NCBI GenBank assembly: GCA_903831595.1
Contig: CAIKXY010000004.1
Location: 96,552-160,551 of the forward strand
Reading direction: 5' to 3'
Length of the DNA stretch: 64,000 bases
Source of the DNA: an uncultured bacterium
GTDB taxonomy: Bacteria; Patescibacteriota; Minisyncoccia; Phycocordibacterales; GWA1-40-21
The notes under the pieces were generated by a model, which had not been told where the DNA came from, ran no database searches, and saw only the letters and a program-made list of their open reading frames with translations. Within the stretch, counting starts at the first letter, position 1. Each line of letters opens with the position of its first letter. Both the position numbers and the translations under genes were made by a program. Below, in pieces: positions 6,295 to 36,735 of this stretch.

Positions 6295-7527
6295 TTATTC
6301 ATACCTTAGAGCTTCCATTGGGCTCTTTTTCGAAGCCTGGTTCGCTGGATATATACCAAAGACTAATCCGACCAATCCTGCAACCAAAACTCCCAATACT
6401 GCTGCACTCCATGGAAATACAAAGCTCCAATCAAGTTTAATAACCGATGTTAATATGATAGATATTACATAGGACAAAGTTGCTCCCAAAATAATTCCAA
6501 TAATACCACCAGACGCCGTAAGTATAACTGCTTCAAGTAAAAATTGAGTTAAAATATCTTTTCCGGTTGCCCCAATGGCTTTTCTCAAACCGATTTCTCG
6601 TGTTCTTTCAGTCACTGATACAAGCATGATATTCATAATTCCAATTCCTCCTACCACAAGAGAAATTGCGGCAACTGCAGCTAAAAATGCTGTGAGTGCA
6701 TTCGTTATTGTTGATAAAGTTGCAGCGACATCAGCCGAAGTTGTAACAGAAAAATCATCTTTCGTTGGGTCAGTAATGTTATGTGAGTTTCGTAAGGTAA
6801 TGGTCACATCTTGAACTGTTGATTTAAGATTTGCTTCTGAATCTGCTTCAACAACAATTCTATTATAATATTTTGTTCCAGTTATATATTGTTGAGCTGT
6901 TGTGTATGGCATGAAAACCGTATCATCAAAACTTGAAGAAGCCCCTTTTTCTGGTAATACTCCAATAACTTTAAAGGTATTATTTTTAATTCTTATTTTT
7001 TGACCTATTGGATCATCACCGTCAAAAAGATGTTGTTTAACTTTATAGCCAATTACAACTACAGATGACAAACTTTGTACATCTTGGTCAGAAAAAAATG
7101 TTCCCCTGTCAGGATTTAAACTAAAAATTTCTGGGACAAGTTCACCAGAACCGAAAACAGAAACTTGATAAACATTGCTTCCATAAACCGCTTTTCCGGC
7201 TCCGACAACCATTGGCATTACATATTTTGCATGAGGAACATTTGTTTTATTTTTTATTAATTTTAAATCTTTTTCTTTAAGAGAATCGTTCATCGTCTGC
7301 GATGCCATTGATGGACCAAAGGAAACTTTTCCGGGTAATGTGATAATCGTTGTTGCTCCTAGACCTTTTACTTGCCCAAGTATAAGATTTTGTGCGCCTT
7401 GTCCAAGTGACATAACCAATATAATTGAGGTGATACCAATAACAATACCTATTATCGTCAAAGCTGAGCGCGATTTGTGCGTTGTGAGTCCCGTTACTGC
7501 AGTTTTTATGCTATATCGTAATTTCAT
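6295..7527 (-). CDS. ABC transporter permease, MacB/FtsX family
   Basis: N-terminal TM helix, large periplasmic domain, C-terminal FtsX-like 3-TM bundle; placed with an ATPase and an HlyD adaptor. Confidence 0.8.
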   Translation of the reverse strand: MKLRYSIKTAVTGLTTHKSRSALTIIGIVIGITSIILVMSLGQGAQNLILGQVKGLGATTIITLPGKVSFGPSMASQTMNDSLKEKDLKLIKNKTNVPHAKYVMPMVVGAGKAVYGSNVYQVSVFGSGELVPEIFSLNPDRGTFFSDQDVQSLSSVVVIGYKVKQHLFDGDDPIGQKIRIKNNTFKVIGVLPEKGASSSFDDTVFMPYTTAQQYITGTKYYNRIVVEADSEANLKSTVQDVTITLRNSHNITDPTKDDFSVTTSADVAATLSTITNALTAFLAAVAAISLVVGGIGIMNIMLVSVTERTREIGLRKAIGATGKDILTQFLLEAVILTASGGIIGIILGATLSYVISIILTSVIKLDWSFVFPWSAAVLGVLVAGLVGLVFGIYPANQASKKSPMEALRYE

Positions 7528-32851: not shown

Positions 32852-35329
32852 ATGAATATAAGAGAATACTTAAAACAAAGCTCGATATACAATGTTTTGG
32901 CAACAGAATCTTTGGTGTCAGAAAATTTTAGAAATAAATTATCGAAGATATCAAAAGTCATATTATCTATATTGGTATTAATTTTGATCTTGTTTTATTT
33001 TACTCAGCATTCAATAAAATTTACAAATTTTAAGAATTTTATTGTCATTCATGACTTAATAAATAGAACGGTTGGTCTTATTATGTTTAATGTTGGTATA
33101 TATATTTATTCAAGTATAGCAAGTTTTTATCTTGCATCAGAATATTATTTTGAAAAGATTACTCAAAATAAGTATAGCAAAGATGAACTATACACTTTTT
33201 CCGCTGGTAGGATTTTATATACTGGTAGAAAAACTGATATATTGCATGGTTTTTTTGCTTCAAAAATTGGAAGACTTATATTAATAAGATTGGGCATAAA
33301 TACAAAAGATATCAATTTTTTTTATAATTCAGAGAATATTACTACAGATGAAAATGTACCAGTTGTAGATGGACAGATATTAAAATTGAAGGATATTGCA
33401 AAATATCTATATAATACAAAACCAAATTTTGTTAAATTTTTAAATGATAGAGGCATTAGTGATAAAGAGCTTTTTGGTACGATAGAATGGGTTATCTATG
33501 AAATTGAAACGAAAGAATACCAATCACAGTGGTGGAGGCCGGAAATATTATCTACAAAAAAAAGGATTGCTAGTGACTGGTCCTTTGGAAAAACATTTCT
33601 TCTAGAAAGGTATGGCAGAAACTTAATGAATGACTCCGAAGTAAATTCTGAAGCAATTTCATTTGAAAGCAGGGTAACTGAAATAAGCCAAATTGAAAAT
33701 GCCCTTTCAAAATCAACTGCTGCAAATGCAATGCTCGTTGGTGAGCCTGGGCAAGAAAAAATGCAAGTTATTTGGAGTTTGTGTAGAAATATAAAAAATA
33801 ATACCATTTCTCCAGCACTACAAAAGAAAAAACCGATCTTGCTAATGGCAAATATATTAATATCAGAGTGTGGAAGTAAAGATCTTTTAGAGAATCAAGT
33901 GTCAAAAATCCTAAACGAAGTTATTCGCGCTGGAAATGTAATACTAGTTATAGAAAATTTTACTGAATTATTTAAACATGCAGAAAACATTGGTAGTAAC
34001 TTTTTGGATTTGATTAATCCTTTTCTAAGTAGCTCAAGTATTCAAGTGGTTGCAATTGTAAATTCAATTGATTTTCATCAATATTTTGAGAATAATAAGT
34101 TATTGTCAAATAACATTGAGACAATTTTAGTTAGACCATTAACAGCGGATGAAGTAATAAAAATTGTTTACGCAGCAGCTCTTGAATCAGAAAAAAATTA
34201 TAAAATATATTTTACTTTTCAGGCTGTTCAGGAATTTGCAAATAGCGCAAGTTATTATTTTCCAAACGGCGTAACCTCCGATATTGCAATAAATCTATTA
34301 AATGAGATATCACCTTGGTCAAAGAGAAATGGGTATAAAATAATTGGTAAAGATGAAGTGCTTGAATATATTGAGCAAAAAACAAACATTCCAACTAGTG
34401 GAAAAATTTCAGCAAAAGAAAAAGAAAAACTACTTGATTTAGAAAATCAGATAGGAAAACGAGTCGTTGGCCAAAAAGATGCAATTGTTGCTATCAGTAA
34501 TTCTTTGAGACGTGCGAGAACTGGAGTAAGAAATCCAAATAAACCAATTGGCTCTTTTCTATTTCTTGGTCCTACTGGTGTGGGTAAAACTGAGACAGCA
34601 AAAGCACTTGCATACGTGTTTTTTGGAAGCGAGGAAAACATGATGCGCCTTGATATGTCAGAATATCAAACTGACGATTCTATGGAAAGGCTTATTGGCT
34701 CATTTAGTACGGGTAAACCAGGTGTATTTTCTAGTATGATTAGAGAGAAGCAGTACGGCGTCATTCTTCTAGACGAATTTGAAAAAACTCACAAGGATGT
34801 ATTAAACCTGTTCTTACAAATTCTTGATGAAGGTTTTTTCTCTGATACCTCTGGTCAAAAAGTAAATACGAGAAATATTATATTTATTGCAACTTCAAAT
34901 GCTGGTGCTAATACTATTTTTGAAATGGTTAATGCTGGGAAAAATCCAAAAGAAGCTCAGGATGAAATTATTGATGAAATAGTTAAAAATGGATTATTTA
35001 AACCTGAATTGATAAATCGTTTTGATGCAACAATTATTTATAAACCGCTTGAAAGTGATGACTTAAAACAAATTGCAAAAATAATGCTAACTAAAGTTGC
35101 AAGCAGAATGGTTGAAAAAGGTTTAACTCTAAATATTTCAGATGAACTTATTGACTATATCGTTAAGAATGGTTCAAATAAAGCCTTTGGTGCAAGACCA
35201 ATGAACAGATTTATTCAAGAAACAATAGAAGGAACAATTGCAAACCTTATTTTGAAAGGTGAGGCTATTTCAGGAAAAACAATATCATTTGTAGTAAATA
35301 ATAATAATTTAGTGACAGAAATCTCATAA
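32852..35329 (+). CDS. membrane-anchored ClpA/ClpB-like AAA+ ATPase with a degenerate D1 and an intact D2
   Basis: Two N-terminal TM helices. D1 Walker A degenerate (GEPGQEKMQV) and Walker B IEN in place of DE. D2 Walker A GPTGVGKTE, Walker B ILLDEFEKTH, sensor-2 GARPMNR. Confidence 0.8.
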   Translation: MNIREYLKQSSIYNVLATESLVSENFRNKLSKISKVILSILVLILILFYFTQHSIKFTNFKNFIVIHDLINRTVGLIMFNVGIYIYSSIASFYLASEYYFEKITQNKYSKDELYTFSAGRILYTGRKTDILHGFFASKIGRLILIRLGINTKDINFFYNSENITTDENVPVVDGQILKLKDIAKYLYNTKPNFVKFLNDRGISDKELFGTIEWVIYEIETKEYQSQWWRPEILSTKKRIASDWSFGKTFLLERYGRNLMNDSEVNSEAISFESRVTEISQIENALSKSTAANAMLVGEPGQEKMQVIWSLCRNIKNNTISPALQKKKPILLMANILISECGSKDLLENQVSKILNEVIRAGNVILVIENFTELFKHAENIGSNFLDLINPFLSSSSIQVVAIVNSIDFHQYFENNKLLSNNIETILVRPLTADEVIKIVYAAALESEKNYKIYFTFQAVQEFANSASYYFPNGVTSDIAINLLNEISPWSKRNGYKIIGKDEVLEYIEQKTNIPTSGKISAKEKEKLLDLENQIGKRVVGQKDAIVAISNSLRRARTGVRNPNKPIGSFLFLGPTGVGKTETAKALAYVFFGSEENMMRLDMSEYQTDDSMERLIGSFSTGKPGVFSSMIREKQYGVILLDEFEKTHKDVLNLFLQILDEGFFSDTSGQKVNTRNIIFIATSNAGANTIFEMVNAGKNPKEAQDEIIDEIVKNGLFKPELINRFDATIIYKPLESDDLKQIAKIMLTKVASRMVEKGLTLNISDELIDYIVKNGSNKAFGARPMNRFIQETIEGTIANLILKGEAISGKTISFVVNNNNLVTEIS

Positions 35330-35349
35330 ATATAGCCATAATAAATAGC

Positions 35350-35377
35350 TTGACAAAAAAAACAATTGGAGTACAAT
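35350..35377 (+). promoter_or_regulatory. consensus sigma70-type promoter TTGACA-N16-TACAAT, followed by the inverted repeat GTTATCA-N5-TGATAAC (35391-35409)
   Basis: Exact hexamer matches; no convincing CDS downstream before the terminator at 35589. Confidence 0.55.
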
Positions 35378-35588
35378 TGTGATGTAAATAGTTATCACCA
35401 GTTGATAACATTTACTGGGGTTCTTGGTTTTATATCTACCCCAAGTCTGTGCGATTATCCAGATACTCTTTTGTATCCAGACTATAATATCGCTCCCGTT
35501 CTTTTTTTGTTCTTTCAACAGTTAATAGGACTGTTAGTTATAATTTTTACTTTTGTAATTATTTAACTTATCCACCCTATTCAGCTTC

Positions 35589-35622
35589 CACTTCCGGAGG
35601 CTGTTTTTTTATTTTTAATAAC
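35589..35622 (+). terminator. intrinsic terminator (CAGCTTCC-ACTTCC-GGAGGCTG plus T7ATTTT)
   Basis: 8-bp stem with one G-U pair, followed by a long T-tract. Confidence 0.7.
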
Positions 35623-35651
35623 TTGACAAAGTTAAAATTATTTGCTACAAT
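35623..35651 (+). promoter_or_regulatory. consensus sigma70-type promoter TTGACA-N17-TACAAT; RBS AGGAGGT at 35664-35670
   Basis: Exact -35/-10 hexamers with 17-nt spacing, upstream of the ATG at 35678. Confidence 0.65.
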
Positions 35652-35677: not shown

Positions 35678-35881
35678 ATGGAAAACCTTTCCAAGGAGGA
35701 AATGGGAGAAATTGCCCTGAAATATGTTGCCATGAAACTTTATAAAGATGGCTTCACTATTTCAAAAAGTTCTTTGCGTGAAATAAATAATCACGCAAAG
35801 GAACTTGGCATCCCAGCTGAGAAACTGAAAGAGTTTCTCAGAGTTATGGTCCAGGAAACAATGGACCAGGTGTTCAAATAA
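35678..35881 (+). CDS. hypothetical small protein (67 aa), probably highly expressed
   Basis: Strong promoter plus a perfect Shine-Dalgarno. The track ORF starts at TTG 35642, but the ATG at 35678 with its RBS is preferred. Confidence 0.5.
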   Translation: MENLSKEEMGEIALKYVAMKLYKDGFTISKSSLREINNHAKELGIPAEKLKEFLRVMVQETMDQVFK

Positions 35882-35992
35882 TGAACACCAGCAACAAAAG
35901 CGTAGAGTTGAACCACATCTGTGGTTCGTAAAGGGGTAATTGCATCTCGCCAGGTTTGGCCAGATGTCAGAACAAGAACCCAGCTCCCGCTT

Positions 35993-36027
35993 AAGGCGCG
36001 GCGATAATCAGCGGCGCCTTTTTATTT
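35993..36027 (+). terminator. intrinsic terminator (AAGGCGC-N14-GCGCCTT plus TTTTTATTT) ending a GC-rich structured 3' region
   Basis: GC stem plus T-tract, 112 nt beyond the stop of the 67-aa gene. Confidence 0.6.
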
Positions 36028-36030
36028 GAC

Positions 36031-36735
36031 TTAAATTCTACTTTTTAAATATGCAATTCTTTTGTCCTCCTCAAATTTTTCAATTGCATAACGAAGCATG
36101 GTTCGTGGCATTTTTTTATAATATTTTTTCAGAAATTTTTCTTCCTCAGCTTGATTTCTGTTCCCCACTTCTCGCAACATCCAACCAACGGCTTTATGTA
36201 TCAAATCATGTTTATCATTCATTAATATTTTTGCTAGTCTCAAACTATCACTAAACTTTTCATTTTTTATAAATGTATACGTAGAAATAATTGAAATACG
36301 TTTCTCCCATAGATTATTTGATGCTGCAAATTTATATAAAATTGTTTTATTTTTATTTAATAAGTATTCCCCTACTATTCTAGGACTTGAAAGGTCTACA
36401 AGATCCCAATTGTTTGCTCGTTTTGCATTATTAATATAAAACTTAAATATTTTTTCTTGCTCATCCAGGTTCGCCATGGCGAACTTATCAACTAGTATAA
36501 GAAGTGCGCAAAGTCTTTCTTCGTGAATTTTTGAATACAATAATTTCTTTATTTCTGAAAGTGATAAATCTGTATATCTTTTAGCAACTTTTCTAACTTT
36601 TGGTACTTTAACGCCGATAAATACGTCTCCTTCACCATATTGGCCTTTTCCAGTTTTAAAAAACCATTGTAAATTGTCTGCATGATCAAAATCTGCTAAA
36701 AATTTCAAATCATTTTTTATGTCTTCTGCGGTCAT
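36031..36735 (-). CDS. DNA alkylation repair protein (AlkD/AlkC-like HEAT-repeat glycosylase family)
   Basis: Length and motifs (FFKTGKGQYGEGD, WDLVD) match the PF08713 family. Confidence 0.75.
   Translation of the reverse strand: MTAEDIKNDLKFLADFDHADNLQWFFKTGKGQYGEGDVFIGVKVPKVRKVAKRYTDLSLSEIKKLLYSKIHEERLCALLILVDKFAMANLDEQEKIFKFYINNAKRANNWDLVDLSSPRIVGEYLLNKNKTILYKFAASNNLWEKRISIISTYTFIKNEKFSDSLRLAKILMNDKHDLIHKAVGWMLREVGNRNQAEEEKFLKKYYKKMPRTMLRYAIEKFEEDKRIAYLKSRI

Follow-up and report, generated by a model that had tools for sequence, protein, structure and literature searches.

A candidate gene for a structured non-coding RNA of about 230 nucleotides behind clp in Paceibacteria

A promoter, an RNA and a terminator in a row are the layout typical of base-pairing small RNAs (sRNAs). 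The DapZ/MicL type comprises sRNAs that are located in 3′ UTRs, have a promoter of their own and share the terminator of the upstream mRNA. To our knowledge, Patescibacteria have very small genomes and few regulators and lack cultured models, and their regulatory and structural RNAs are almost unknown apart from the universal ones; our literature searches found no report of such sRNAs in this group. Comparative genomics has also yielded orphan structured non-coding RNA (ncRNA) candidates, such as the raiA motif RNA and those of the Breaker/Weinberg surveys (PMC2864571), which are about 200 nt long and have many covarying helices, candidate pseudoknots, conserved junction or loop nucleotides and no tie to a downstream gene. 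The element described here shares these traits and, by analogy, appears most like these orphans, but it has so far been found in four Paceibacteria lineages at a single locus and has no match in Rfam 15.

The window, by which we mean the whole stretch of 64,000 nt that was analysed, comes from an uncultured bacterium (GCA_903831595.1, contig CAIKXY010000004.1, positions 96,552-160,551, forward strand). It is part of a low-GC Patescibacteria (Paceibacterota) genome of a host called ultra-small Paceibacteria, and its nearest relatives are Paceibacterota-named metagenome-assembled genomes, mostly from stratified lakes. We read positions 35350-35616 as, very probably, an independent gene for a structured ncRNA of about 230 nt. 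That it is such a gene and that its product acts in trans through its fold, taken jointly, is a reading to which we give a probability of roughly 50%. A first-pass annotation of the window had proposed an independently transcribed sRNA of this size, and the comparison with relatives supports it: the unit is conserved in four lineages, is non-coding and carries compensatory changes on the + strand.

The transcription unit and its neighbours

The RNA gene adjoins clp, which lies upstream and encodes a ClpC-like AAA+ protein of 825 aa (32852-35329, + strand). Downstream follow a 67-aa ORF (35678-35881, +; ATG at 35678, stop ending at 35881) with its own promoter and Shine-Dalgarno sequence, a second structured element and a convergent alkD-like gene (36031-36735, - strand) with a P-type ATPase beyond it. 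The sigma-70-type promoter of the RNA gene (35350-35377, +) consists of TTGACA (35350-35355), a 16-nt spacer and TACAAT (35372-35377), and the arrangement TTGACA-16-TAYAAT is found in all four distinct sequences of the element (window, L001, L021 and L028; L-numbers label the clp-bearing loci compared with the window). Throughout the 64 kb the pattern TTGACA-N15-18-TAYAAT has only two matches, at 35350 and 35623, where shuffles lead one to expect 0.26; two matches were reached in 5 of 100 shuffles. The match at 35623 (TTGACA-17-TACAAT, 35623-35651, +) is the promoter of the neighbouring 67-aa gene and context rather than part of the RNA. It begins 6 nt after the T-run of the terminator and is missing in L021 and L028. 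Transcription of the RNA would start at about G35384, 7 nt past the -10 box. At the 3′ end stands an intrinsic terminator (35582-35616, +), in which an 8-bp stem, CAGCUUCC/GGAGGCUG, at 35582-35603 is followed by U7-A-U5; all four sequences keep it, some of its pairs having changed in a compensatory way or to G·U. Its own promoter, the 3′ intrinsic terminator and the lack of a conserved reading frame are, at the level of sequence, the marks of an sRNA gene. The first-pass annotation had described the exact promoter, a perfect inverted repeat behind it (GTTATCA at 35391-35397, N5, TGATAAC at 35403-35409) and a second consensus promoter right after the terminator, and all three are present; the terminator that it placed at 35589-35622 exists as well, but a few bases further to the left, with a T-run that ends at 35616.

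Between the clp stop codon and the -35 box lie 20 nt without a hairpin, and transcripts of clp probably end at the terminator of the RNA gene too, because clp has none of its own. The element resembles the DapZ/MicL type in standing behind a terminator-less coding gene with a promoter of its own and a shared intrinsic terminator, but its promoter follows the stop codon instead of lying within the coding sequence, and the RNA is much more structured. The short, hairpin-free distance would also suit a cis element of the clp transcript, that is, a 3′ UTR, terminator or insulator that stabilises the mRNA and blocks run-on into alkD, with an incidental internal promoter. Two further observations agree with this: the copies found are always located straight after clp, and in L021 and L028 the terminator ends beside the alkD stop codon. 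However, a single hairpin suffices for a terminator, against about nine conserved helices here; the consensus promoter and a hairpin (P1) placed exactly at +1 are kept in all four sequences; and relatives cope with clp and alkD abutting or overlapping, the spacer being absent. We consider a role confined to the clp transcript improbable.

About 180 nt of the unit had been described as lacking a credible ORF, and the relatives bear this out. A 66-aa ORF (35366-35566, +) exists, and with it the reading that the locus encodes a small hydrophobic protein or type I toxin, from this ORF or from a shorter F/L/I-rich one, T-rich DNA being apt to yield hydrophobic peptides. Yet the ORF starts with TTG upstream of the predicted transcription start, has neither an ATG nor a Shine-Dalgarno sequence and is not conserved, and its hydrophobic look is explained by the T-richness of the DNA. 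The copies do not share their stop-to-stop frames, all of which are shifted in L001, L021 and L028 by one 2-nt indel in the loop of a hairpin and by several of 1-5 nt, and the substitutions obey the logic of base pairing, not that of codons. A conserved small protein in relatives, which the earlier annotation had named as an outcome that would speak against an sRNA, was looked for, and the frames were found broken by indels. A protein product is extremely improbable.

Three known kinds of element were considered for the locus and rejected. A type I toxin-antitoxin system would call for a conserved small hydrophobic ORF with a ribosome-binding site, and none is present. For a type III (ToxI-like) system there are no tandem repeats, and the neighbours are clp, alkD or the 67-aa ORF, with no toxin gene. 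For a transposon guide RNA (omega RNA/HEARO) or a miniature mobile element, there is no TnpB or IscB nearby and only a single copy per locus, with no further one in the 260 kb scanned.

The neighbouring proteins offer some observations of their own. The 67-aa protein has a sub-threshold Pfam match to the N-terminal part of MecA (E = 0.015, 15.3 bits versus a cut-off of 22.5). MecA is an adaptor of ClpC. A large protein database yielded only an identical protein, and small ORFs at the equivalent place in L001, L003 and L015 show 17-31% identity to the 67-aa ORF. In the Clp-like protein, Pfam finds just AAA_2, AAA_5 and ClpB_D2-small together with weak AAA matches, and its N-terminus (32852-33150), as read from the translation, is a stretch of about 100 aa with hydrophobic, membrane-helix-like segments replacing the Clp N-domain.

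Covarying helices and candidate pseudoknots

The 229-nt window RNA is predicted to fold far more stably than its shuffles (z = -5.9; 0 of 200 equally stable), and its homologues reach z = -5.4 and -6.4. At the predicted 5′ end, P1 (35384-35415, +) is a 13-bp hairpin that includes the inverted repeat. In all four sequences it begins 7-8 nt past the -10 box, and eight of its pair positions have changed in a compensatory way; its sequence is largely replaced but its pairing is kept, with a UUCG tetraloop in two copies and a G·U pair in one. The repeat had been called operator-like, and a perfect 7-bp inverted repeat just past a promoter is what a DNA-level palindrome for a repressor would look like, the remainder of the region being spacer. 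The repeat, however, differs in each lineage, its G·U pair and UUCG tetraloop are meaningful in RNA only, no regulator is among the adjacent genes, and conservation spans 230 nt. Because its pairing and position are conserved and its sequence is not, the operator reading was dropped as hardly credible, and the repeat is best read as the inner part or top of the 5′-terminal RNA hairpin P1.

P1 is followed by P2 (35416-35443, +), a hairpin with the stem UGGGGU/ACCCCA, in which a G-C pair changes to U-A and G·U variants occur; its distal part is variable and extends to 10-11 bp in L001, L021 and L028. The core domain (35444-35493, +) comprises strand a (AGUCUG, 35444-35449), which pairs with a′ (CAGACU, 35478-35483), strand b (GCGAU, 35451-35455), which pairs with b′ (AUCGC, 35489-35493), and hairpin c (GAUAC/GUAUC, 35462-35477), all on the + strand. 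In L028 a U-A pair of a-a′ is turned to A-U (AGUCAG/CUGACU) and b-b′ reads GCGGA/UCCGC. A pyrimidine-rich linker without consensus pairing (35494-35516, +) contains GUUCUUU (35498-35504), which is kept in all four sequences. Beyond it, P4 (35517-35535, +) is a hairpin AACAG/CUGUU with the 9-nt loop YYRAUAGRM, one C-G pair being U-A in L028, and P5 (35536-35568, +) combines AGUU/AACU with AUAAUU/AAUUAU and carries the conserved UUUUGUAAU; in P5 a G-C pair changes to A-U between the window and L001, and details differ in L028. The bases AAUAGG of the P4 loop (35524-35529, +) are complementary to CCUAUU (35576-35581, +), which abuts the terminator stem. The corresponding pairs are GAUAGG/CCUAUC in L001, GAUAGAC/GUCUAUU in L021 and AUAGAC/GUCUAU in L028.

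Two pairs of these helices cross, a-a′ with b-b′ and P4 with the loop-tail pairing, and compensatory changes occur in all four of them. The connecting loops are of constant length, with 1-2 nt from a to b, 5 nt (WUAAW) from a′ to b′ and a 9-nt P4 loop that leaves 2-3 nt ahead of the pseudoknot strand and 0-1 nt behind it; the 3′ strand lies 0-2 nt from the terminator stem. These constant lengths match the geometry of H-type pseudoknots, and the crossing pairs suggest that there are two of them, candidate pseudoknot 1 in the core and candidate pseudoknot 2 between the P4 loop and the tail, although the crossing helices could be alternative conformations instead of simultaneous pseudoknots. Minimum-energy folds of single sequences contain, depending on the copy, either b-b′ and P4 or a-a′ and the loop-tail pairing.

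The helix table is our own structural alignment of four sequences, too few for R-scape-grade statistics, and holds 58 consensus pairs, of which 18 have compensatory and 4 one-sided changes, with 7 of 221 cells unpaired. It was curated by hand because realignment with a covariance model only reproduced the MAFFT registers, and in both kinds of alignment P1, P2 and the 3′ strand of pseudoknot 2 are out of register. In the case of the loop-tail pairing, MAFFT matches the 3′ strands found in L021 and L028 to an adjacent stretch of the window sequence, so that complementarity is present in four of four sequences but positional homology is uncertain. In the plain MAFFT alignment, 96.8% of the core cells are paired versus 26-46% with slid partners, three pairs have changed on both sides, and the covariation score was equalled by 3 of 500 shuffles; for P4 the figures are 85.7% versus 18-43%, likewise with three pairs changed on both sides. 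RNAalifold, run on the unbiased MAFFT alignment, picked part of P1, a-a′, c, the P4-loop/tail pairing, P5 and the terminator. Nine helices had been proposed from three sequences, and the fourth, L028, which was found later, retained all of them and showed additional compensatory changes, located in a-a′, b-b′, P4 and the terminator. The first-pass annotation had suggested looking for conserved structure in orthologous intergenic regions; such structure is present, with compensatory pairs in four lineages and on the + strand, which is favoured by 11 G·U cells that would become C·A mismatches on the opposite strand. An RNA from the minus strand was considered since one window hairpin would gain G·U pairs there, and was rejected: the 5′ arm of that hairpin is absent in L021 and L028, and the G·U cells argue for the + strand, as do the promoter and the terminator.

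Copies in relatives and the variable clp-alkD spacer

The whole unit of promoter, RNA of about 230 nt and terminator recurs 3′ of orthologous clp genes, and four distinct sequences are known: the window, L001 (identical in L014 and L020), L021 and L028 (with L029 and L030). A Clp-protein scan of species-representative genomes, confirmed by tblastn, gave 12 loci with the element in L001 only, where Clp is 86% identical and the element has 77% identity over 361 nt (E = 6e-66). Among metagenome contigs, a scan for the exact pattern returned L014 and a chance match in GC-rich DNA (L013), and nothing else. Contigs encoding a 72-86% identical Clp led to L020 and to the clearly diverged L021, and a member of the Clp cluster led to L028, L029 and L030, which hold the most diverged copy. 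With a covariance model of the first three sequences, this copy scores 82 bits (E = 2e-16). Over the window and 23 loci (260 kb), covariance model R1 found no extra copy, its best other score being 17.5 bits inside a small ORF of L015. Phage and plasmid collections gave no BLAST match to the element, and scans of viral contigs gave no true copy, only a single chance match to GC-rich phage DNA (L031), which was rejected by the covariance model. The Rfam search proposed by the first-pass annotation assigned the element to no family: at the gathering threshold, Rfam 15 (4227 models) finds four tRNAs only in the whole window, and at E <= 10 the window, L021 and L001 copies yield only sub-threshold, inconsistent, terminator-driven matches. 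Judged by these searches, the RNA belongs to a family so far undescribed.

L021 and L028 have neither the 67-aa gene nor the second promoter, and there the unit is by itself between clp and the convergent alkD. These copies bear on a reading suggested in part earlier, in which the region is a leader, riboswitch or attenuator and its terminator controls the 67-aa gene. A structured domain followed by an intrinsic terminator does precede a gene in the window and L001, and the 3′ strand of pseudoknot 2 touches the terminator, much as in riboswitch aptamers of the H-type pseudoknot kind, which likewise have a compact pseudoknotted fold with a 3′ strand abutting an intrinsic terminator. The element differs from these aptamers: two of four lineages have no gene downstream for it to regulate, no antiterminator was seen, and it matches no known aptamer class. 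Because stand-alone copies without a co-oriented gene downstream exist, the region is not read as a leader, and several further points stand against it: the next gene owns a consensus promoter in both the window and L001, L003 and L015 carry such small genes without the element, inspection of the four sequences revealed nothing that could pair as an antiterminator with either strand of the terminator, changes in the terminator sequence are, on direct reading, not accompanied by matching changes in an alternative partner, and Rfam aptamers give no match. Control of the 67-aa gene in cis is very unlikely.

Relatives whose Clp is 69-80% identical have no clp-alkD spacer or one with other contents. 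The RNA gene occupies the junction either by itself or together with an ORF and the second element; at other loci the junction is empty or overlapping, or filled by small ORFs of various kinds, a Na/Pi cotransporter gene or an amino-acid kinase gene. The RNA gene is, as far as these loci tell, accessory in a variable clp-alkD hotspot, since many close relatives are without it; it is thus dispensable and could be a nearly neutral passenger of a variable spacer. The L001 copy (6499-6762) is a mosaic, with a promoter/P1/P2 part that is 82% identical to L028 (5499-5765) and 61% to the window, and a core that has 93% identity with the window and 74% with L028. A 14-nt direct repeat, AATAGCTTGACAAA (35344-35357) and AATAACTTGACAAA (35617-35630), flanks the RNA cassette at a distance of 273 nt. 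Its copies are the -35 regions of both promoters, and recombination between them would cleanly remove the RNA gene. Several of the lineages come from the same metagenomes; JGI 3300009502, JGI 3300025162 and ENA ERZ27245625 are among the samples in which they occur. The variable hotspot, the flanking repeat, the L001 mosaic and this co-occurrence suggest that the RNA gene has been exchanged by recombination between lineages. Gain and loss at a single spacer, together with the mosaic copy, offer a small view on recombination between co-occurring species.

Possible mode of action

We infer that the RNA works in trans, its fold serving as a platform to which a protein or a small ligand binds, and put the chance of this somewhat short of even. 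P1 and the terminator hairpin would shield the two ends of the RNA; a hairpin at the extreme 5′ end protects against 5′-end-dependent RNases. Between them would lie two domains. An H-type pseudoknot would close each of these, in the first through a-a′ crossing b-b′ and in the second through pairing of the P4 loop with the bases just ahead of the terminator, and the conserved pyrimidine tract GUUCUUU would link both. The molecule would work as a trans-acting fold, not as a leader, with its partner protein or ligand supplied from elsewhere. This mode is favoured because conservation is strongest in the core helices and junctions and because the long-range closures of both domains covary; against it stands that most bacterial sRNAs of such gene layout are antisense regulators.

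A classical trans antisense sRNA, in which the single-stranded (C)GUUCUUU(UUU) pairs with purine-rich ribosome-binding regions and the structured domains serve for stability only, is a serious alternative. The gene layout is typical of such sRNAs, and the invariance of GUUCUUU in all four sequences, placed as it is between structured domains, would suit it. Sequence conservation peaks, however, in the core helices and junctions and not in the linker alone, and AAAGAAC, the sequence that would pair with the tract, occurs no more often in the window than expected (17 times versus 18). An RNAduplex scan against start regions gave uninterpretable long-loop duplexes, complementarity to the ribosome-binding site of the neighbouring gene is unconserved on direct reading of the sequences, and two covarying pseudoknot-type interactions would be unusual in a simple antisense RNA. 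Antisense action is less likely than the platform.

The trans-acting platform invites comparison with 6S RNA, which the element resembles in its length of about 200 nt, in its strong promoter and in that it would act by being bound, not by coding. The element has a local hairpin at the 5′ end and a multi-domain body; its ends are not paired to one another, and the rod with its central bubble is missing. It is also patchy and accessory where 6S RNA is near-universal, and Rfam gives no 6S match. Unpaired ends and patchy distribution argue that it is not 6S-like. A more far-reaching and less likely proposal is that the RNA is the first of an undescribed double-pseudoknot class in bacteria of the candidate phyla radiation, with an accessory, fold-dependent role (a trans ligand sensor, a ribonucleoprotein component or a protein sponge), passed among co-occurring Paceibacteria by recombination in the clp-alkD spacer. 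As a strongly promoted, multi-helix and probably pseudoknotted RNA of 230 nt, it is a candidate for in vitro study without culturing the host; as a narrow family, it carries moderate weight at present.

The second element, beyond the 67-aa ORF, is likewise conserved and RNA-like. It is GC-richer, ends in a terminator, and occupies 35910-36025 (+) in the window, 7062-7200 in L001 and 6878-7015 in L003. Its parts are, in order, a variable hairpin, the invariant UAAAGGGGUAAUUG, a hairpin, CAGAAYAAGAACC and the terminator. RNAalifold predicts 30 pairs for it, with compensatory changes in 10, and Rfam has no match. It is present in L003 without the first RNA and absent from L021 and L028, which marks it as an independent module.
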